A stretch of DNA of 64,000 nucleotides from Candidatus Woesebacteria bacterium. Its GTDB lineage: Bacteria > Patescibacteriota > Microgenomatia > UBA1400 > UBA12028. The position numbers and the translations under genes were made by a program. The notes below the pieces were generated by a model. That model was not told the DNA's origin and ran no database searches. It saw only the letters and a list, made by a program, of their open reading frames with translations. This document shows positions 1 to 64,000 of this stretch, piece after piece; within the stretch, counting starts at the first letter, position 1, and each line of letters starts with the position of its first letter. The stretch lies in the NCBI GenBank assembly GCA_040006915.1, contig JBDTWD010000003.1, forward strand, positions 38,023 to 102,022. The letters run 5' to 3'.

Positions 1-305
1 CACCGTGTCTCAGTTACCTTGTGGCCGATCACGCTCTCACGTCGGCTACCCGTCGTCGCCTTGGTGGGCTTTTACCCCGCCAACTAGCTGATAGGGCGCA
101 GGCTCCTCTCATAGCGTCTTACGACTTTGATCTTGCGATCACATGCGGTATTAATTGGCCTTTCGGCCAGCTATTCCCCACTACGAGGTAGATTCCTACG
201 CGTTACTCACCCGTCTGCCGCTAAACTTATATTGCTATAAATTTCGCTCGACTTGCATGCTTAAGGCACACCGCCAGCGTTCATCCTGAACCAGGATCAA
301 ATTCT
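1..305 (-). rRNA. rrs: 16S rRNA, 5' ~305 nt (gene continues beyond window start)
   Basis: Reverse complement of 220-305 reads AGAATTTGATCCTGGTTCAGGATGAACGCTGGCGGTGTGCCTAAGCATGCAAGTCGAGCG, the canonical 16S 5' end. Window position 1 is the reverse complement of GGTAACTGAGACACGGTG (~E. coli position 320). Confidence 0.9.
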
Positions 306-607
306 TAGGAAAATTTTCAAAAAATTAACAAAATTAAAAGAATTGAACGGATTTTAACTTGTACACACGAAAAATTTTATTCTCTCGTGGTCAAGCAAAA
401 TCCGTCAAAAAAGACTGTTTTGGCTTACCACGATGAAAACGGTTGGTTTCGTGTTCATTCAAATATAAAGCATTCTTCAATTGTAAAAGAGCAAAAAGAA
501 TATGTTCTAAAGACGAAAAAACCCCAGGTTGCTGGAGTTTTAATTCATGCAAACCTTGAAGGTGATGTCTAGAACATATGGGTATAATACCAACTCCCCA
601 GAGAAAA

Positions 608-1878: not shown

Positions 1879-2292
1879 TTAGTTTGCCACTTTCTTACCG
1901 CCCTCATCTTTCACTTGGATAACATCCAAAGCATACGACACGATCTCGGATTTTCCTTCGACGAAGACAAATTTGTACGTACCCACTTCATTAAATGGGA
2001 AACCTTCAAAATTTGAAACAAAATTAAATTTCCCGTTCTCACCAAAATTAAGCTTCACATCGGCCGCAAAATCTTCTTTTCCTGATGGAGCTACAATCTT
2101 TAATTTTACTTCTTCTTCTGTATTTGCGGGTCCGATAAAGGTCACAACAAATGACATACGAGCATGGCTTCCTGGAAGTTGACGCACGAACAGTTTGTCA
2201 AAGATTCCAATGACCGACAATTTCTTGTCTTCCCCTGTCATAGCGTAATCTGCCAAAGCGACGAGCTCTGCAGTGATTGTTGTTTTTGCCAT
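1879..2292 (-). CDS. hypothetical protein (137 aa) located between dnaK and dnaJ
   Basis: Clean ORF, no recognised motif. Position inside the heat-shock operon. Confidence 0.5.
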
Positions 2293-2307
2293 AGTTTCCT
2301 TTCAATA

Positions 2308-2490
2308 TTATTTACGAACTTTCGCTTTCAACAATCGAAAAACAATTGCAGAAATAAAAACGACTGTCACTATTGCTGATGAAAAAATCGCGTTATCTTT
2401 TACCCTTGAAGAAGAATCTGTGATCAAAACAAATACAGAAATTCCCATCAAAACCAGATATAGTACAAAGATCTTTTTCGACTTCGTCAT
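2308..2490 (-). CDS. small 2-TM membrane protein (60 aa), hypothetical
   Basis: Two hydrophobic helices and a basic C-terminus. Tightly packed between dnaK and the 137-aa ORF. Confidence 0.3.
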   Translation of the reverse strand: MTKSKKIFVLYLVLMGISVFVLITDSSSRVKDNAIFSSAIVTVVFISAIVFRLLKAKVRK

Positions 2491-2546
2491 AGTTGAATAT
2501 GGACACAGAGATCCAGTTTCTTAAGACTGAACCCCAATTTATTATC

Positions 2547-4448
2547 TTATTCTTTAACCACTTCACCTTCCTCAGCATCTTTCTTTGCGTCGTCAGTTGT
2601 CGCATCGGCAGCTGCAGGCTCTGCTCCATCAGTTGGAACTTTGGCTGCTTGCGCTTTGGACATGGCTTCCCCAATCTTTTGAGCAGATTGCAATGTTGCT
2701 TCCATCGCGGTTTTGAGTTCCTCTTCAGTCGCATCTTCTTTTTTGGCGAGGACTTCTAACTCATTGACGTTCTTTTCGATGGCTTCTTTGTCCGCAGCTT
2801 CCAAGTGTTCACCATATTCTTTCAGTTGCTTGCGCAGTTCAAAGACTGTGTGCTCCGCTTGGTTGCGAGATTCGATGAGTTTCTTTTTGGCCTCATCTTC
2901 CTCACGATGCTTTTCTGCCTCATTGACCATCTTCTCAACTTCCTCTTTTGAGAGATTGGTGGAATTTTGGATAGTAATCTTTTGCTCTTTGCCACTGGTC
3001 TTGTCCTGGGCTTTGACGTGCAAGATACCATTGGTATCGATATCAAAGGTGACTTCGACTTGTGGGACTCCACGTGGAGCCGGTGGGATACCATCGAGAA
3101 TAAAGCGACCTAAAGACTTGTTGTCAGTTGCCATCTCACGTTCACCTTGCAAGACGTTAATCTCTACTTGTGTCTGACTGTCAGCTGCGGTACTAAAGAC
3201 CTGTGCCTTACTGGTCGGTACGGTAGTGTTGCGTGGAATGAGTGGCGTTCGTACACCTCCAAGAGTTTCAAGACCCAAGGTCAGTGGTGTAACGTCCAGC
3301 AAGACCACATCTTTGACATCTCCAGTAATAACACCGGCTTGTACTGCCGCTCCGACAGCGACTACTTCATCAGGGTTGACACCCAAATGTGGTTCTTTAC
3401 CAAAGAATTTCTTCACTTCTTCTTGTACCTTTGGCATACGAGTCATACCACCGACCATCACCACTTCATTGATTTCAGACTTACTATGTCCAGCATCTTT
3501 GAGGGCTTGTTCGACTGGTTTGAATGATCCGCTGATTAGGTCATCGACGAGCTCTTCCATCTTTGCTCTCGTTAAATTCATGGTCAGATGCAAAGGTCCA
3601 TCTGAACCTTGGGTGATAAATGGCAAGTTGATTTCAGTCGTGGTTGCTGAAGATAATTCAATCTTCGCTTTCTCCGCAGCATCTTTGATACGCTGTAGTG
3701 CCTGTTTGTCTTTTTTCAAATCAACAGAATTTTCTTTTTTGAATTCTCCGATGATCCAGTCGATAATGCGGCCATCAAAGTCATCGCCTCCAAGAAAGGT
3801 GTTTCCGTTGGTTGATTTCACTTCAAAGACACCATCACCAATTTCCAAAATGGAAATATCAAAGGTTCCACCACCAAGGTCATAAACTGCAATCACTTCA
3901 TTTTTCTTTTGATCCAAACCGTAGGCCAATGCTGCGGCAGTTGGCTCATTCAAAATGCGTTCCACAGTCAAACCGGCAATTTCCCCAGCTTGTTTAGTTG
4001 CTTGACGCTGCGCATCATCAAAATATGCGGGAACGGTGATAACTGCTTGAGTGACTTTTTCTCCTAAGAAGGCTTCGGCGTCTGCCTTGGCTTTCGAGAG
4101 AGTCATCGCAGAAATTTCTTGTGGTGTATAGACTTTCCCTTCCACTTCCACACACGCCATACCATCTTTCCCTTTTACGATCTTGTAGGCTACATGCTCC
4201 ATGGTCTTTTTCACTTCAGGGTCGGTAAACTTTCGTCCCATCAAACGTTTTACTGAGTTGATAATCTTGTCAGACTTTAATACCATCTGGCGCTTAGCGG
4301 TTGCACCGACGGTACGGGTGGTTGGATCTACGATACTGGGATAGGTGTTTGTTCCTTCTGCAGTTGGGATCACTTTTGGTTTTCCACCCATCATCACAGC
4401 GATTGCACTGTTGGTCGTACCGAGATCAATTCCAATTACTTTTGCCAT
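2547..4448 (-). CDS. dnaK: chaperone DnaK (Hsp70). Likely start is [14 protein letters not shown] at 4448; the ORF track extends to 4463.
   Basis: [18 protein letters not shown] and full-length Hsp70 architecture. Confidence 0.97.
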
Positions 4449-4475
4449 ATATGTTTCCTCCATTTAAATAACTAT

Positions 4476-4955
4476 TTAATTACTTTTTGTACCAACAATT
4501 ACTTTTGCGGGTTTAATAACAATTCCATTAAGCGCATATCCAACACTCACTACTTCTACTACTTTATCTTCCTCTCCTTCTTTCGTATCAATCGCTTCCA
4601 TCGTTTGTGGGTCAAATGGTAAACCGACTGGATTAATTTCTTGCAATCCTTGTGATTCAAACACGTGTTTAAATTGAGTAATCACCATGTCTAACCCCTT
4701 GTCTTTGACATGTTTAGCGGCTAACAGCAAATGGTCATACGGTTCTACTAGTTGTTCAACAAAATCTTTGGTTGCCAGCTTCGCAAAGCGCATACTGCTT
4801 TCAGCCGTCTGACGTTCAAGATTTTGGTAATCAGCTAAAGCTCTTTTATACTTCCCTTCAGTCTCTGCCAGTTTCATTTCGCACTCTGTATGGTCTGCGA
4901 CCACTTCTTCTACTTCTTCTGCTTGGAGACTATCTGCCATAGGTTTTTTGCTCAT
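4476..4955 (-). CDS. grpE: nucleotide exchange factor GrpE. Likely start is MSKKPMADSL; the track ORF extends to 4988.
   Basis: Coiled-coil N-terminus and GrpE C-terminal beta domain. Position between hrcA and dnaK. Confidence 0.85.
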   Translation of the reverse strand: MSKKPMADSLQAEEVEEVVADHTECEMKLAETEGKYKRALADYQNLERQTAESSMRFAKLATKDFVEQLVEPYDHLLLAAKHVKDKGLDMVITQFKHVFESQGLQEINPVGLPFDPQTMEAIDTKEGEEDKVVEVVSVGYALNGIVIKPAKVIVGTKSN

Positions 4956-4960
4956 AGATT

Positions 4961-5701
4961 TTATTTTCCTACTACATCTACTATACAATTACGAAAGTAT
5001 CGCATCATCGGAATCACGTATGGATAGTCAAAGCGACTACTTCCTACCACACCCAACCAACTTCGATGCCCACCGGCGGTGAATTTGGTAAAGATAAAGC
5101 CGACAGAATCTAAAGACGTATTCCCTAATTCTTCACCAAAAACGATTTGAACTGGTTGTTCTCCTTCAAATTTCTCAAAAATCTCCATCATTAAACTGGT
5201 TTCATCAATCAGGTTTAACACCGCTCGCATTGCATCAATATCAAAGAATTCAGGCATGGAGAGGAGTTGGGCTGACCCTGAGATAAACAACTGTCCATCA
5301 TCGGTCATAGCAAAGCCGACTGAGTGCGCACGTTGTGCCAAGATTTTAGTTGATTCTTGTAACAAAAGGTTTAAATGGGTGCGTCGTTGCCAAATGCGTT
5401 CTTTGAAAGAGACTTCTTCAGCAACTGAGAGATCTTTCTCTCGCATTAAGTCACGAACATACACTTTCATCGCCAAAGACGTGGGACTGCGCCCGGCTGA
5501 GGTGTGTGGCTGCTTTAAGTACCCATGTTTGGTCAAGTAGACCATTTCATTGCGAATAGTTGCCGGAGAAACACCAAGACTATATTTGCGATCAATAGTG
5601 TCAGAACCGACAGCCTCGGCAGTATTAATATACTCCTCGACTACGGCTCGTAAAATTTGGACTTGTCTTGAGGTAAGGTCAATCATAGCTAACTGCGTCA
5701 A
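4961..5701 (-). CDS. hrcA: heat-inducible transcription repressor HrcA
   Basis: N-terminal wHTH (LTSRQVQILRAVVEEY...), HrcA-length protein, first gene of the dnaK operon, CIRCE immediately upstream. Confidence 0.85.
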   Translation of the reverse strand: MTQLAMIDLTSRQVQILRAVVEEYINTAEAVGSDTIDRKYSLGVSPATIRNEMVYLTKHGYLKQPHTSAGRSPTSLAMKVYVRDLMREKDLSVAEEVSFKERIWQRRTHLNLLLQESTKILAQRAHSVGFAMTDDGQLFISGSAQLLSMPEFFDIDAMRAVLNLIDETSLMMEIFEKFEGEQPVQIVFGEELGNTSLDSVGFIFTKFTAGGHRSWLGVVGSSRFDYPYVIPMMRYFRNCIVDVVGK

Positions 5702-41115: not shown

Positions 41116-41189
41116 GGGCGTGTGGCGCAATCGGTTAGCGCAGGAAGCTTATACCTTCAAGGTTCCTGGTTCGAGTCCAGGCACGCCCA
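41116..41189 (+). tRNA. tRNA, anticodon loop CUUAUAC -> anticodon UAU (Ile, AUA-reading) by hand folding
   Basis: Acceptor GGGCGTG/CACGCCC, D-arm GCGC-AATCGGTTA-GCGC, anticodon arm GGAAG-CTTATAC-CTTCA (27-43 mismatch), variable AGGTT, T-arm CCTGG-TTCGAGT-CCAGG, discriminator A. CCA not encoded. Confidence 0.75.
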
Positions 41190-41395
41190 CAATCGTTGAA
41201 TAGGTTCATAAATTATGTGTGCTATGCCAGTTCTATCGAATGCGTGATACCATTTATGTAGTAGAAAAATGCATATATATGATTTCTTCTGTTCTCTGCC
41301 TACTTCTCATCAAACTTTAAGGCTTTTATGATATATATGTCTCGCGGTGATTCGACGTATAAACTGGGTGTACAATACACAAGTGAAAAGCAAAT

Positions 41396-57858: not shown

Positions 57859-58074
57859 ATGACTGAATCTTGCAGATATTTCATTGATTTATCAAAACTA
57901 AATGGGGAAAAAGAAAAAGTACAAGACTGTGTGATTGCTGCTGTTTCTCAACCAAATCAAGAGGTCAGAGATAACAAAATCTTTTTTTCCTGTAAAGAAG
58001 GATCACTTGCCTACTTACAGTTTATGCTTTCAGAGATATGGGCAAATATAGACATTTCTCCCGTGCAGGAGTAA
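57859..58074 (+). CDS. small hypothetical protein (71 aa)
   Basis: ORF only. Overlaps the sufU 3' end in antisense. Confidence 0.2.
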   Translation: MTESCRYFIDLSKLNGEKEKVQDCVIAAVSQPNQEVRDNKIFFSCKEGSLAYLQFMLSEIWANIDISPVQE

Positions 58075-58387
58075 TTGACTCTATCCCAGTTAATTCCTGA
58101 ATTTGCTTTTGATCAAATCCATGGAGCTGTTCTGTTGTCTTTCCAATCGCCCATTCACAAAACAGGTCGGTGGATGCTGTACTAATTGCACACCCTTCCC
58201 CTCTCCATTTAGCGTCAACAACAATGTTGTCTTTGCGAAGCAACGTCACTTCAAACTTATCACCACAACTGACATTGTGTGCTTGTTTGATATCAAGGCT
58301 ATAGTTTTCAGGCACCACTTCAATCCATCCCGAAAAAAGTGGGTGTTTGTAACGATCCAGAATTGAGTCCAAATAGAGATCATCCAT
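58022..58387 (-). CDS. sufU: SufU/IscU-like Fe-S cluster scaffold
   Basis: HNVSCGDKF...GEGCAISTAS...C three-Cys NifU-N pattern. Confidence 0.8.
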   Translation of the reverse strand: MDDLYLDSILDRYKHPLFSGWIEVVPENYSLDIKQAHNVSCGDKFEVTLLRKDNIVVDAKWRGEGCAISTASTDLFCEWAIGKTTEQLHGFDQKQIQELTGIESITPAREKCLYLPISLKA

Positions 58388-59606
58388 GGAAGACCTTTTT
58401 TACTTTTTCTAGAGCCACTACCAACGTATCAATATCTGCTTTAGTGGTATAAACATTAAAACTCACTCTCGTCGTGGCGACCCAATGCATTGCGTGATGC
58501 AATGGCATTGTGCAGTGATGACCTGACCTGACCGCAATTCCTTCACTATCTAGAATTTGAGCCACATCATGAGAATGAATACCTTTGTACAGGAAACTCA
58601 CAGAGCCGGAACGGTTTTTCATTGGCCCGACAACCGTAATTTCTGGAATCGCCGTTAATTTATCAAGCGTATAGCGTATGAGTTCCTCATCATGAGTAAA
58701 GACATCATTCATATGGAGTGCTGAAAGGTACTGACAGGCAGCTGCCCATCCAACCGCTCCCGCAACATCTGGAGTTCCTGCCGTAAACTTATCTTCCAAA
58801 TCTTCTGAAAATGTTGCACTTCCTTCTTCAACTTCATCAATCATTCCCCCACCAAATAACCACGGTTTCATGGTTTTTAAAATTTCTTTCTTTACAAATA
58901 AACCACCGACTCCCATGGGACCAAGCATTTTATGGGCAGAGACCGCGTAAAAATCAACTCCAAGAGCATGGAAATTGACAGACATATGTGGAGCAGCTTG
59001 CGCTCCGTCAACAACAATAAACGGAAGCTTTTTAAAGAGATTTTTTATCTTTGAAATTGGATTTACAGTACCCAAGGTATTTGAGACATGGGCCAGGGCC
59101 AAAATTTTTATGTTGTCCCCTTCCCTTCTTATCTTTTCTTCGAGCCAATCAAGATCCAACATTCCTTCTTCGGTCACCGGTATCAACCCTAACGTCGCTT
59201 TTGTCCGCTTAGCTAACTCCTGCCAAGGAACCAAATTGCTATGATGCTCCATCTGGGTCGCCAAAATCAGATCCCCCTGCCCTATTTTCTCTTCGAGATT
59301 GTAGGCTACAAGATTTAACGCTTCAGTGGTATTTCTCACCATGATCAGTTCTTCAGGCTCAGCACCAAAGAAAGTGGCAATCGTGCTTCTTGAGTCATGC
59401 CAAGCTCGAGTGGATTTATCTCCCAAGTAATGAATGCCGCGATGGACATTGGCATTACTGGTCTTGTAGTAATTGGAAATGGCGTCGATGACAACTTCAG
59501 GCTTTTGACTAGTCGCGGCACTATCCAAATACACCAAAGGTTTCCCTGACGAATGGGAGATAGAAAGAATTGGAAAGCCCTTACGGACTTCTTGAGGGTC
59601 AAACAT
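58380..59606 (-). CDS. sufS: cysteine desulfurase SufS (class V aminotransferase)
   Basis: PLP region SAHKMLGPMGVGGLFV and catalytic Cys loop (…GHHCTMP…). Confidence 0.9.
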   Translation of the reverse strand: MFDPQEVRKGFPILSISHSSGKPLVYLDSAATSQKPEVVIDAISNYYKTSNANVHRGIHYLGDKSTRAWHDSRSTIATFFGAEPEELIMVRNTTEALNLVAYNLEEKIGQGDLILATQMEHHSNLVPWQELAKRTKATLGLIPVTEEGMLDLDWLEEKIRREGDNIKILALAHVSNTLGTVNPISKIKNLFKKLPFIVVDGAQAAPHMSVNFHALGVDFYAVSAHKMLGPMGVGGLFVKKEILKTMKPWLFGGGMIDEVEEGSATFSEDLEDKFTAGTPDVAGAVGWAAACQYLSALHMNDVFTHDEELIRYTLDKLTAIPEITVVGPMKNRSGSVSFLYKGIHSHDVAQILDSEGIAVRSGHHCTMPLHHAMHWVATTRVSFNVYTTKADIDTLVVALEKVKKVFHG

Positions 59607-59707
59607 TATGTATATTGTACCAGGACTAGAAACTACAATAGTTATGGGATATAATATCCTCTTCGTTCGAGGCCATATGACAATGCGTCAGACTGGCTAC
59701 GAAAGGA

Positions 59708-60016
59708 TTGGTAATGAACGATCAGAAAATGCTCCAACTCGTTCAGCAGGCCCGTCCCGGTATCTACGGAAAAATTTTTGCTTTACAGCAGAAATTCCCG
59801 CAGATTAATCCCGATCTAAAAGCAGTCGCCGTGAAAGCAATCCAACTGGACTATCTTTTCGCGGTTGCGGAAGAAATCGGGTTAGATGGACTTGTAATCG
59901 AGAATCTCTTGATAGATGGTTCAAAGACTCGCTGGAAATACGATGTTGAGCAGAATGTTTTCTTACGTCAAGGAAGAGCATGCGATCCAGTATGCTTTGT
60001 CCCTAAGAACCAATAA
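59708..60016 (+). CDS. hypothetical protein (102 aa)
   Basis: ORF followed by a strong intrinsic terminator. Confidence 0.35.
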   Translation: MVMNDQKMLQLVQQARPGIYGKIFALQQKFPQINPDLKAVAVKAIQLDYLFAVAEEIGLDGLVIENLLIDGSKTRWKYDVEQNVFLRQGRACDPVCFVPKNQ

Positions 60017-60021
60017 ACAAT

Positions 60022-60054
60022 GGGGAGTGCCGTGCAGCACTCCCCTTTTTCTTT
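60022..60054 (+). terminator. Rho-independent terminator
   Basis: Perfect 9-bp stem GGGGAGTGC-CGTGCA-GCACTCCCC followed by TTTTTCTTTT. Confidence 0.75.
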
Positions 60055-60116
60055 TATAAGAATAATTCCTCATTTCCTAGCACTGCTCAAGAAATGACTT
60101 ATAATACAAAAACTCT

Positions 60117-60626
60117 ATGGAGCACATTAGATTTAAAACCGAGGCAGCTAAAATTTTCGCGCAGGCTGGTGGTAAATATGCCACATCTGTTACTGCACAA
60201 GCAGCATTCATTGCACTAAGTTTCGAATCTAATAAAAGAAAAATCCAAAAGGCCAAGAAAGAGATTCTGTCATGTACAGAAGACATTGAATCAGTTCTTG
60301 TACTCGCTAATCTTAGACATCAATCTCTACCTCCTGAGAGAAGACCAACAATCAGTACAAAAAGAGTAAGAGATGTTGCCGCAGACACTTTTTCTTTTGC
60401 TAAACAAGTCGCTATTCTTTTAGAGTCTGATCTTAAAAATATTCTCCAGGAAGGATTCCCTGCACAGATAGAAAAGAATAGATTTAATTCTTCTTTTCTG
60501 AGTTTGGGAGAAATAGACTTTCGTCACAAAGTTACTCGTATGATTCATCGACGACAAACAGAGTTATTTTTGTGGGGAGTACCATGGCAGATACATCTTC
60601 TTCTTGAGAAAAAGAATCGCGAATAG
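60117..60626 (+). CDS. hypothetical protein (169 aa)
   Basis: ORF only. Lies between suf genes on the opposite strand. Confidence 0.4.
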   Translation: MEHIRFKTEAAKIFAQAGGKYATSVTAQAAFIALSFESNKRKIQKAKKEILSCTEDIESVLVLANLRHQSLPPERRPTISTKRVRDVAADTFSFAKQVAILLESDLKNILQEGFPAQIEKNRFNSSFLSLGEIDFRHKVTRMIHRRQTELFLWGVPWQIHLLLEKKNRE

Positions 60627-60630
60627 CATT

Positions 60631-61116
60631 CTATTCTAGAAACCCTTCCACAATCATATCTTCAGCAAGTTTCTGTGGGATTCCCCGGCTTTCTAGATAA
60701 AACAAATGTTCTTCAGGAATCCTTGAGATACTCGCAGCGTGAGAACATTTCACATCATCAGTCTTGATTTCGAGTTCGGGAATGGCTTCAGCTTTGGCCT
60801 TGTCAGACAGTAATAAAATTCGTTCCTCTAAAAATGACTGGGTGTCTCCACAGTCTTCCTCGATAATGATCCGACCAAAAAACCGAATATGGCTCTTGTC
60901 TTCTGCTACTCCCTTGAGTATCGTTTTGGCTCGCGTGTGAGGAGCTTTATGCACAATCGTTAAGTTAATGTTTATGTCATCATCATTTTTTCCGTGAAAC
61001 ATTCCTACGATTGATATTTCATCTCCAGGATTAAGAATTTCGACTCGATAGTCACCTGATTTGGTCAAGGTAATGTTTTTCATATTAGCCAACTGACCCT
61101 TCCATCTCATGATCAA
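60631..61116 (-). CDS. sufD: SufD-like protein, short form (161 aa, C-terminal SufBD domain only). TTG/alternative start likely.
   Basis: ...ILLLSDKAKAEAIPELEIKTDDVKCSHAASISRIPEEHLFYLESRGIP matches the SufB/SufD C-terminal signature (LEI..DDVKCSHGAT). Confidence 0.7.
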   Translation of the reverse strand: MIMRWKGQLANMKNITLTKSGDYRVEILNPGDEISIVGMFHGKNDDDININLTIVHKAPHTRAKTILKGVAEDKSHIRFFGRIIIEEDCGDTQSFLEERILLLSDKAKAEAIPELEIKTDDVKCSHAASISRIPEEHLFYLESRGIPQKLAEDMIVEGFLE

Positions 61117-63697
61117 TCAATCGATTCATTTCAATTGCATACTCAAGTGGGAGCTTTTTCACAAGATCATTGACGAATCCATTCACAATCATTTTACGAC
61201 TATCTTCTTCCGTTACACCACGACTCATCAAATAAAATAGTTGCTCATCACCAATGCGACTCACTGTAGCTTCATGTTGGATCTCGACCTGATCATTCAT
61301 AATCCGATCAGTGGGATACGTGTCGGAACGTGATTTTCCATCCAAAAGCATGGCATCACACACCACCGTATTTTTACTATGATGCGCCTGGGGTGACACC
61401 ATCACCATTCCCCGGTAACTAGTACGTCCGCCATCTTTACTAATGGATTTAGAAATAATAGTTGAGCTCGTATATGGAGCTAAATGCATTGCTTTGCTTC
61501 CAGTATCTTGATGTTGCCCGGCTCCTGCTAAGGCCATTGATAATGTTTCTCCCTTGGCACCCTTTCCTACTAACAAGAAAGATGGATATTTCATGGTGAG
61601 TTTGGAACCCATGTTAAAGTCTGTCCATACCATTGTTGCTTCTTCCTCAACACGAGCACGTTTAGTGACCAAGTTATAGACATTTTTGTACCAATTCTGG
61701 ATAGTTGTGTACTGACATCTAGCTCCTTTTTTCACGAAAATCTCAACCACTGCAGAATGCAGTGATCCGGAGGAAAATGCCGGAGCGGTACAATTATGAA
61801 CGGCAACTCCCCCTGCTACATAGCTTTCGTCATCTCGAACACTAAAGTTATAGACTGGCAAATTTTTTACAGTTTTTCTTTCAATTGAACGAATAGGAAC
61901 GTACATATACTTTTCATCGATATGATAAAAAGTAGCTCGTTTTTTATTATGTAATCGGTCTTCTACTTTCTCTTCTGCAATTTTTGCAAAATCTGATAGG
62001 TACTGTCCGCCGATCACACACACATACATTGTCTTTCTCCCTTCATACGATCTGCTTTGCCAATTTAAGCTCGATGCGATGTTGAGACGCAAAAGTATTT
62101 GTCGTGCTTGTGAAGCAAGTGTTTTTGAGGTCGTACACAGACGAAATACTTCTTTTAATCCATGTTTATGAGTTTTTTTGTAATAGTTCCCATCACCTCT
62201 ATACCACCCTAACAGCAACTGCTTCTGTTTTTCTAAAGACTCTTTCATCATCCAAAGTGGAATTTTTTTTTCGTCACACTTTGTTCCGAACTGTTTAAAT
62301 AATCGACACAATCTTGTAGAAGAAACTACGACAGAAGTTCCGTGGTTCGTTTTATGTGTTTGCTCACTAATTCTGTTCTCGTCAAAAACAATCCTAATAA
62401 GCTTTTTTACATCATCAATATATTCTCTCTCATTACTGTTAAATGAAAAATTCAGATAATGTCCACTACTAATACTCCCCTCTGCCAGATAATATCCAAC
62501 TAACCGAAAGAAATCCTCTGTAGAAGGGATTGACACTTCTTCAAGAAAGGGGCCATGTCTTCCGGCACCACGTAATACTGGAAAACGAACAGTTTTGTTT
62601 TTGAAAATCTCTCTATCTATAGGAATACAAGCATAGTCGTATTTGGAAATATTTTTTGTTTCTGTCCATGAAGGAATCCATTTACTGTTTCTTTCATTTT
62701 TTCTCTGTCTCTTCACTATAAGAAAAGGATGCTCTTGTGTTGTCTCTATTTTCTCTTTTGGAGAACCAACAAGTTCTATCGTATAGAGGTCTCCAGAATA
62801 CGGCCGTACCTGCGTGTAATACACCTCTTTGTAACGTCCTTCATGTGTTAGAACTAAATCTCCCTTCTCAATTGACTCAATTGCCGCTTCACCCATATCG
62901 GTTTGAATGCGTGTCCCCGCAGTGAAACAGCCCTCCACGTAGTGAACACTCGCTCCTTCATCCACTATGATCAACGTGCGTTCAAATTGACCTGCATTTG
63001 GAGAATTAATACGAAAATACGCTTGGAGAGGCATCTTCACATCCAACCCCTTGGGTACATACACAAACGATCCCCCCGACCAAACAGCAGTATTGAGGGC
63101 CGCAAATTTATTATCTCCGGACGGAATATTTTTGCCAAAGTATTCTTTGATGAGATCAGGATATTGTTTTAGGCCCTCATCCATTGACAAAAAGATTACT
63201 CCTTGTTCCTCCCAGATGTTTTGCAGAGATCCATAGACCACTTCACTATCGTATTGGGCTTTCACACCAGCCAGAACATCTCGTTCTGCCTGAGGAATTC
63301 CCAACTTATCAAAAGTTGCTTTCACGTCAGCCGGAACATCATTCCAAGACTCAACAGACTTATCTGTCGGTTTTAAGTAGTAATGAATTTTATCGTAATC
63401 GATTTCCGACAATACTCCTCCCCAGGTTGGGGTTTGCATGCCTTCAAATATCTCCAAGGCTTTGAGACGGATCTCTAGCATCCACTCTGGTTCCTCTTTA
63501 ATGTGTGAGAGTTCTTCTACTACTCGTTTGGACAATCCAGGTTTAGAAATAAAACTATATTTGTCAGTTGGATACGAAAACCCTGCCGTATATGTCGAGT
63601 CGACTACGGAGTCATCAAACTGCGTCGTATGTTTGTTTGCAAATCTGGACATAATTATAAAACTGAAAGCAGTGTTTTCACTCTCGTTTCTTAGCAC
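61085..63697 (-). CDS. sufB: Fe-S cluster assembly protein SufB interrupted by an in-frame intein (870-aa precursor; ~491-aa mature SufB)
   Basis: N-extein ...LIIVDEGASVHYVEG | C-extein CTAPAFSSGSLHSAVVEI...VVCDAMLLDG...FYLMSRG. Host sequence is SufB-like at both ends. Confidence 0.9.
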   Translation of the reverse strand: MLRNESENTAFSFIIMSRFANKHTTQFDDSVVDSTYTAGFSYPTDKYSFISKPGLSKRVVEELSHIKEEPEWMLEIRLKALEIFEGMQTPTWGGVLSEIDYDKIHYYLKPTDKSVESWNDVPADVKATFDKLGIPQAERDVLAGVKAQYDSEVVYGSLQNIWEEQGVIFLSMDEGLKQYPDLIKEYFGKNIPSGDNKFAALNTAVWSGGSFVYVPKGLDVKMPLQAYFRINSPNAGQFERTLIIVDEGASVHYVEGCFTAGTRIQTDMGEAAIESIEKGDLVLTHEGRYKEVYYTQVRPYSGDLYTIELVGSPKEKIETTQEHPFLIVKRQRKNERNSKWIPSWTETKNISKYDYACIPIDREIFKNKTVRFPVLRGAGRHGPFLEEVSIPSTEDFFRLVGYYLAEGSISSGHYLNFSFNSNEREYIDDVKKLIRIVFDENRISEQTHKTNHGTSVVVSSTRLCRLFKQFGTKCDEKKIPLWMMKESLEKQKQLLLGWYRGDGNYYKKTHKHGLKEVFRLCTTSKTLASQARQILLRLNIASSLNWQSRSYEGRKTMYVCVIGGQYLSDFAKIAEEKVEDRLHNKKRATFYHIDEKYMYVPIRSIERKTVKNLPVYNFSVRDDESYVAGGVAVHNCTAPAFSSGSLHSAVVEIFVKKGARCQYTTIQNWYKNVYNLVTKRARVEEEATMVWTDFNMGSKLTMKYPSFLLVGKGAKGETLSMALAGAGQHQDTGSKAMHLAPYTSSTIISKSISKDGGRTSYRGMVMVSPQAHHSKNTVVCDAMLLDGKSRSDTYPTDRIMNDQVEIQHEATVSRIGDEQLFYLMSRGVTEEDSRKMIVNGFVNDLVKKLPLEYAIEMNRLIDHEMEGSVG
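61793..62929 (-). mobile_element. intein (~379 aa) with LAGLIDADG-type homing endonuclease domain inside sufB
   Basis: Begins CFTAGTRI (Cys1) after host ...YVEG. Ends ...GGVAVHN followed by +1 Cys of host CTAP. Internal LVGYYLAEGS and LLGWYRGDGN are LAGLIDADG-like blocks. Confidence 0.8.
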
Positions 63698-64000
63698 TTC
63701 TTAAGTCTGCAATAAGTTTATTCACTGATTGCTCATCTACTGCGTGCTGGCGGATCTTCTCTTCACTAATTCCTTCAAGTTCATTTATCCAACCTCTTAG
63801 TTCTTTTTCAAATAGATCAATTTGATTGGATGTAACACGTAAATTTCCAGCAGATAATAAACTACGAACCCATCCAATGTGATTCACAATCTGTTGCAAA
63901 GCGGCAAAACTCTTTGTTTCTCCTCGTTTATGAAGTTCCTTATGCCCTTCATTGAGTACTCTATTTTTGAGACTATCCGTAATCTCTAAAAATCTCTCCT
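63678..64000 (-). CDS. hypothetical protein, 3' part (ORF runs off the right window edge; upstream of sufB)
   Basis: Minus-strand frame stays open from 64000 to the stop at 63678: ...HKELHKRGETKSFAALQQIVNHIGWV.... No confident family. Confidence 0.3.
   Translation of the reverse strand, partial: ERFLEITDSLKNRVLNEGHKELHKRGETKSFAALQQIVNHIGWVRSLLSAGNLRVTSNQIDLFEKELRGWINELEGISEEKIRQHAVDEQSVNKLIADLRSAKKRE

Follow-up and report, generated by a model that had tools for sequence, protein, structure and literature searches.

Since the work on mycobacterial pps1, inteins have been known to occur at the site considered here in SufB, a protein of iron-sulfur (Fe-S) cluster assembly. Splicing of the Mycobacterium tuberculosis (Mtu) SufB intein was reportedly found to be stress-sensitive by Topilina and colleagues in 2015, in a study cited in PMC4760082. 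We analyzed a 64,000-nt stretch of DNA from a Candidatus Woesebacteria bacterium (assembly GCA_040006915.1, contig JBDTWD010000003.1, positions 38,023 to 102,022 of the forward strand), a member of the candidate phyla radiation (CPR). This whole stretch is referred to as the window. Its minus strand carries a sufB gene that is interrupted by an in-frame insertion of 1137 nt. The insertion is very probably a class-1 intein that contains a LAGLIDADG homing endonuclease, and its sequence points to the already known SufB (Pps1) intein, of which it would be a new and divergent allele. What is new is the CPR host and the divergence, which is such that nothing in the collections searched exceeds 61% identity; the insertion site itself is known.

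In Mtu SufB (Pps1, Rv1461), the N-extein ends in …GSYVHYVEG, the intein runs from CLPAGELITT… to …YGFAVHN, and the C-extein begins with CTAPIYKSDSLH… (PMC8891592, supplement). The N-extein and C-extein have 252 and 235 amino acids (aa), respectively, and the precursor was shown to splice in vitro via the canonical pathway (PMC8891592). A first-pass annotation of the window, made from the sequence alone, had proposed the intein and left undecided whether its site was shared with mycobacteria or novel. The insertion point proved identical (VHYVEG/C…HN/CTAP, with slashes marking the splice junctions), and the two inteins are homologous, with 28% identity over the full length of the window intein (residues 1-379, E 5e-28, BLASTP). 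They both belong to class 1, contain a LAGLIDADG domain, and share one catalytic set. The blocks IESIxxGD, TxEHP, RLxGYYLAEG, GDGN, TTSxxxAxQ, PVYNxxV, and AVHN are common to both, including Asn instead of Asp at the VYN position of block F. The exteins are also alike around the junctions, with a C-extein of 235 aa, Gly-1, His-5, and Cys+1-Thr-Ala-Pro in each case. The differences are the length of the intein (359 aa in Mtu compared to 379 aa in the window), the host, which is an actinobacterium in one case and a CPR bacterium in the other, and His-38 of the Mtu N-extein, which is Asp in the window protein (counted by hand from the sequences). While splicing has been demonstrated experimentally for the Mtu intein, it is inferred from homology for the window intein, and this homology to an intein that splices supports its splicing competence.

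The intein was recovered from the open reading frame (ORF) with the same boundaries as those proposed in the first-pass annotation (61793..62929, minus strand; 379 aa). It begins with CFTAGTRI… at ORF residue 257, directly after …EGASVHYVEG, and ends with …SYVAGGVAVHN at residue 635, followed by CTAPAFSS…, and both proposed junctions, YVEG/CFTAGTRI and GGVAVHN/CTAP, are therefore present. Escherichia coli SufB (PDB 5awf) spans the insertion. Its residues 36-255 and 254-495 match ORF residues 53-258 and 636-870, and the junction in this alignment is a single Cys, C254, with no residue lost on either side.

The spliced protein, taken from the Met at ORF residue 16, was searched against a large protein collection. 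The 120 best matches showed 76-95% identity at 100% coverage, were 473-479 aa long, and were all intein-less, reading …VHYVEGCTAPAFSS… uninterrupted through the insertion site. Thus, the site is empty in the closest SufB relatives, the named ones being from Candidatus Cerribacteria (Microgenomates group of Patescibacteria), Woesebacteria, Pacebacteria, and the 'Patescibacteria group'. The same was seen at the level of DNA with L081, an intein-less allele with 95% protein and 80% nucleotide identity to the window sufB. L081 DNA matched the window at 63656-62927 and 61792-60842. Since the only overlap between these blocks is the TGY codon for Cys, the window contains a clean insertion of 1137 nt, and L081 is otherwise colinear with it. 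The host halves are therefore contiguous on SufB, in agreement with what the first-pass annotation supposed. The flanks of the target site are conserved (GTTCACTACGTGGAGGGC/TGTACCGCTCCGGCATTTTC in the window vs GTGCATTATGTCGAGGGC/TGTACCGCTCCTGCATTTTC in L081), and L081 and a second close relative, L082, supply a candidate target sequence for the endonuclease.

The first-pass annotation also gave the SufB reading frame as 870 aa and the mature extein as about 491 aa. The first figure holds for the longest minus-strand ORF in the ORF list (61085..63697, GTG start), which runs for 2.6 kb without stops or frameshifts, but not for the gene. Intein-less SufB relatives are 476 aa long and have the N-terminus MSRFA…, which corresponds to ORF residue 16 onward, and for this reason the true start of sufB is assigned by sequence comparison to the ATG at 63652. 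The predicted sufB gene (61085..63652, minus strand, ATG to stop) would thus encode a precursor of 855 aa and a mature SufB of 476 aa, which replaces the earlier figure for the extein. The TGA of the upstream gene lies 25 nt ahead of this ATG. The N-extein coding region (62930..63652, minus strand) encodes 241 aa and matches E. coli SufB residues 36-253, and the C-extein coding region (61085..61792, minus strand) encodes 235 aa plus the stop codon, starting with Cys+1 at 61790..61792 and then TAP. The identity of the host protein was clear from profile searches, as the NCBIfam sufB equivalog TIGR01980 scored 688 bits against a cut-off of 346, with the match in two stretches, and Pfam detected SufBD_N and SUFBD_core, the core being split in two stretches (2.2e-80). 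No second sufB was found within the window; only a short sufD paralogue is present.

All elements of the splicing domain lie on the minus strand. The N-terminal splicing (Hint) lobe spans intein residues 1-135 (62525..62929, boundaries approximate), is matched by Hint_2, and is all-beta in the structural model described below. It contains Cys1 (62927..62929), the first residue of the intein, and the block B sequence TQEH (residues 64-67; 62729..62740), which fits TxxH. The C-terminal splicing region (residues 326-379; 61793..61954) contains blocks F and G (…PVYNFSVRDDESYVAGGVAVHN) and ends with the terminal His-Asn (61793..61798), which is followed by Cys+1. A check with intein profile hidden Markov models supported the assignment, with Pfam Hint_2 matching ORF residues 257-300 (6.4e-9) and NCBIfam intein_Cterm TIGR01443 scoring 21.3 bits against a cut-off of 15.6; Pfam Intein_splicing also matched, under its own cut-off. 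Twelve relatives, one of them the SufB intein of Mtu, were aligned with the window intein. This family alignment has 31 invariant columns, and all the catalytic positions among them are intact in the window intein. The invariant residues include C1, T64 and H67 of block B, V359, N361, and V364 of block F, and H378 and N379 of block G. The Cys1…HN/C+1 architecture recognized in the first-pass annotation is therefore present, and together with the TxxH motif, the Hint fold, and an insertion that can be removed in frame, these are the features of a class-1 intein. No other intein of this family turned up in the window when it was searched with a family profile.

The LAGLIDADG homing-endonuclease domain, also proposed in the first-pass annotation, was confirmed as a domain of intein residues ~136-325 (61955..62524, minus strand, boundaries approximate) and was matched by Pfam LAGLIDADG_3 in two stretches (6.8e-13). 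Motif 1, LVGYYLAEGS (62474..62503, minus strand), carries the catalytic acidic residue Glu150, and motif 2, LLGWYRGDGN (62186..62215, minus strand), carries Asp246. G145, A149, E150, and G151 of motif 1 are invariant in all 13 family members, the Mtu intein included, as are G245, D246, and G247 of motif 2 in the family alignment.

Since a search of the intein sequence against PDB chains provided only a weak, bacterial-intein-like match (2lwy, E 0.003), a comparison of folds was needed. An AlphaFold2 model of the intein, built on 24 sequences, had a mean predicted local distance difference test score (pLDDT) of 94 and a predicted template modeling score (pTM) of 0.91. In this model, a beta-rich splicing domain (residues ~1-135 and ~326-379) encloses two alpha-beta-beta-alpha-beta-beta-alpha repeats (H138-H318). 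The top Foldseek match in the PDB was the TliVMA intein, which is associated with a homing endonuclease (E 4.8e-19, template modeling (TM) score 0.70-0.72), and PI-SceI, PhoVMA, PI-TkoII, and PI-PfuI were the further best matches. The central domain alone matched I-DmoI and I-Tsp061I, which are LAGLIDADG enzymes of the monomeric type (TM 0.6-0.73, normalized to the target). The model thus fits inteins that bear a homing endonuclease. PI-SceI (yeast VMA1), TliVMA, and PhoVMA share the architecture of a Hint domain with an inserted monomeric double-LAGLIDADG endonuclease and resemble the model most closely in structure (E 5e-19 to 1e-17, TM 0.6-0.72), but they differ from the window intein in sequence (13-17% identity), in host protein, which is the V/A-ATPase subunit A, and in target site.

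The position of the intein within SufB suggests what splicing would accomplish. C254 of E. coli SufB, which cluster assembly requires, is described as the first residue to accept persulfide from SufE (PMC13228346), and Cys+1 of the window SufB aligns with it. In the proposed mechanism, sufB would be translated as the 855-aa precursor, in which Cys1 would undergo an N-S acyl shift aided by Thr64 and His67 of block B. Cys+1 would then attack the thioester to produce a branched intermediate, and cyclization of Asn379, aided by His378, would free the intein. An S-N shift would finally join the exteins as the 476-aa SufB, restoring the strand …YVEG-CTAP… with the Cys equivalent to E. coli C254. Because the beta-strand bearing this Cys is split by 379 residues in the precursor, we infer that SufB function, and hence Fe-S assembly, would require splicing. 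The intein, whether free or still in the precursor, could also act as a site-specific endonuclease on intein-less sufB in the region …CAYTAYGTNGARGG/TGYACNGCNCC…, and cutting of such alleles would drive copying of the intein (homing).

The distribution of the family was determined by scanning the GTDB species representatives. At least 300 confirmed related loci were found, and the best 80 were inspected for their host. About 51 of these 80 are in SufB at the identical site (…Y[VIL]EG/C…HN/C[TS][AS]P), and the SufB-site hosts among them are Patescibacteria (Paceibacterota/Pacebacteria, Saccharibacteria, and others), DPANN archaea, and Chloroflexota. The DPANN hosts among the listed loci are Woese-, Nano-, Micr-, and Aenigmatarchaeota and Nanohalobium. 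The SufB inteins of these uncultured organisms (e.g., L001-L051 and P0001-P0017) have the same site and motifs and a length of 368-394 aa, and they show 39-61% identity to the window intein, with none above 61%. The nearest intein had 58% identity in a collection of ~5.8 billion proteins, where homologues reach E 2.7e-144, and 61% identity in the GTDB species representatives; the exact window intein sequence was found in neither. In contrast to these more distant, intein-bearing SufB hosts, the closest SufB relatives of the window (up to 95% identity) are intein-less. Mini-inteins of 151-161 aa without an endonuclease are also found at the same SufB site (P0034-P0036). The coexistence of full inteins, mini-inteins, and empty sites fits a homing cycle in which the intein invades, its endonuclease decays, and the intein is finally lost.

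Intein identity to the window drops in step with extein identity. The nearest intein-bearing CPR group has a C-extein identity of 80-85% and an intein identity of 57-61%, compared to 63-68% and 47-51% for other CPR and 51-55% and 45-49% for DPANN archaea. The DPANN inteins are as near as those of other CPR although their hosts are more distant, a hint of transfer between domains. We found no description of SufB inteins in CPR or DPANN organisms, and no metagenomic survey of SufB inteins, in the literature searched, although SufB inteins of this kind are already annotated piecemeal in database records. Some public records of metagenome-assembled genomes with the nearest intein-bearing sufB genes (L001, L002, L006, L007, L012, L020, and L041, several of them third-party annotation entries) are titled 'Pseudomonadales', 'Methylococcaceae', or 'Deltaproteobacteria'. 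These labels are probably wrong, as the SufB and intein sequences group with Paceibacterota/Patescibacteria.

Inteins of the same family were also seen in other Fe-S proteins. Those in 4Fe-4S ferredoxin-type, NuoI-like proteins have 30-38% identity to the window intein (L052-L078 and P0019-P0032; for example, L052 4001-5119, L053 4001-5116, and L066 4001-5101), with Bathyarchaeia, Thermoplasmata, 'Methanobacteriota', and Nitrososphaerota as hosts. They occupy at least four different sites, and the +1 Cys is always a ligand cysteine of the CxxCxxCxxxCP motif. In L075 (~2100-3250) and L073 (~4001-5120), a ferredoxin-type protein of Nitrososphaerota appears to hold two inteins in tandem within one CxxCxxC motif, only six residues apart (…VVHN/CVFCGL/CVSPETPV…), which would place them at its first and its third cluster cysteine. 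Some of these inteins terminate in Ser-Asn instead of His-Asn. A further related intein (30% identity) is in P0037, a 504-aa protein from an ENA metagenome with an IscU/NifU_N-type scaffold (GNPR/C…LALHN/CGDVM), where the +1 Cys is the conserved cluster cysteine of CGD.

Several observations weigh against our interpretation or limit it. Intact catalytic acidic residues do not prove that the endonuclease is still active. The nearest intein is only 61% identical, while the exteins are up to 95% identical to the SufB of relatives without an intein. No recent donor or transfer is visible and, thus, ongoing homing cannot be demonstrated. The suf context also differs from that of relatives, as no sufC is present in the window, though this has no bearing on the intein itself. 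One alternative is that the intein splices but its endonuclease is inactive, making it a resident, vertically inherited selfish element that is decaying late in the homing cycle or is kept only because precise deletion is difficult. Base composition is consistent with this. The G+C content of the intein is under that of the extein in nearly all loci and tracks the host with a constant negative offset (in the window, 0.372 for the intein and 0.425 for the extein, with a window mean of 0.423), and for this reason the intein looks long-resident and not freshly acquired. The mini-inteins at the same site indicate, in addition, that endonuclease decay does happen in this family. However, the frame has no stops or frameshifts, both LAGLIDADG motifs are intact with Glu150 and Asp246 invariant across the family, and the complete double alpha-beta-beta-alpha-beta-beta-alpha fold was modeled with high confidence. 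Loss of endonuclease activity is a possibility to be taken seriously, but we consider it unlikely.

Another explanation is that the intein has been co-opted as a conditional switch that responds to redox state or metal and controls when SufB matures, a role already put forward for its Mtu counterpart. In favor of this, the site and the Cys1/Cys+1 pair match those of the Mtu intein, whose splicing is reportedly stress-sensitive, Cys+1 is at the persulfide-acceptor position, and the related inteins described above are at Fe-S ligand cysteines of ferredoxin-type and IscU-like proteins. On the other hand, the closest relatives lack the intein, so it is dispensable for the lineage, and selfish inteins generally insert at conserved functional residues, so an adaptive explanation is not required. 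A role as a switch therefore seems improbable. A broader form of this idea is that the whole intein clade is specialized on Fe-S biogenesis and cluster proteins and gates SufB maturation by redox state, metal, or thiol. It is suggested by the hosts, which are SufB, an IscU-like scaffold, and NuoI-like ferredoxins, each with a functional Cys as the +1 nucleophile. This must be regarded as speculative, with little probability of being correct; if true, conditional splicing would control what may be the only Fe-S assembly pathway of the cell. Finally, a splicing-dead element in a disrupted sufB pseudogene, or an artifact of the assembly, is very unlikely. Nothing specific speaks for either except that sufC is not adjacent as in relatives, while the 2.6-kb frame is uninterrupted with all catalytic residues present, the extein is 95% identical to that of intact relatives, the same architecture is found in dozens of independent assemblies, and there is no other sufB in the window.

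The intein-bearing sufB is part of a same-strand suf cluster, in which sufB and a short sufD are followed, after a stretch of 1 kb, by sufS and sufU downstream. The SufD-like gene (60631..61116, minus strand) encodes 161 aa (SUFBD_core 1.8e-43; TIGR01981 sufD 1.9e-46), covers just the C-terminal half of a SufBD core, and shares 32 nt with the 3' end of sufB. The short SufD is a trait of the lineage and not a truncation, as the versions in relatives have 150-152 aa. The cysteine desulfurase gene sufS (58380..59606, minus strand) was identified by Pfam Aminotran_5 (2.3e-125), and sufU, which encodes a NifU_N-type sulfur-transfer protein (58022..58387, minus strand), by Pfam NifU_N (1.3e-14). The gap between sufD and sufS (59607..60630, 1 kb) has no minus-strand ORF. 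Two plus-strand ORFs in this gap, 59708..60016 (102 aa) and 60117..60626 (169 aa), had no family match, and one relative has a 153-aa ORF on the opposite strand at the same position between sufD and sufS. We considered whether the gap could be a decayed part of sufD, but this was rejected because the 161-aa SufD has a normal C-terminus and the SufD of relatives is equally short.

The gene order in relatives is sufC-sufB-short sufD-sufS-sufU, and the closest relatives, L081 and L082, as well as the contig of P0047, carry sufC upstream of sufB. In the 64-kb window, sufC was not found by a tblastn search with the SufC of a relative; it may lie past position 64000. The ORF directly upstream of sufB (63663..64000, minus strand) runs off the end of the window and is not sufC, having only a weak match to DUF7570. 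Elsewhere in the window, the 5' end of a bacterial 16S rRNA gene (model positions 1-331) is found at 1..312 on the minus strand, where it is cut by the window edge. A tRNA-Ile gene with the anticodon TAT (UAU) is located at 41116..41190 on the plus strand. A UAU tRNA-Ile is uncommon in bacteria, in which AUA is usually read by a lysidine-modified CAU tRNA.

For annotation, these findings mean that sufB is intact, neither fused nor disrupted, with a mature protein of 476 aa. With them, CPR bacteria join the hosts of the SufB (Pps1) intein allele that is classically known from mycobacteria. The occupation of one site across CPR, DPANN, and Chloroflexota provides a natural data set for the homing cycle and for cross-domain transfer among ultra-small organisms, and the intein with its conserved target could become a new splicing or endonuclease reagent. 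If splicing is conditional, an organism that has a small genome and very few regulators would be controlling its Fe-S assembly post-translationally.

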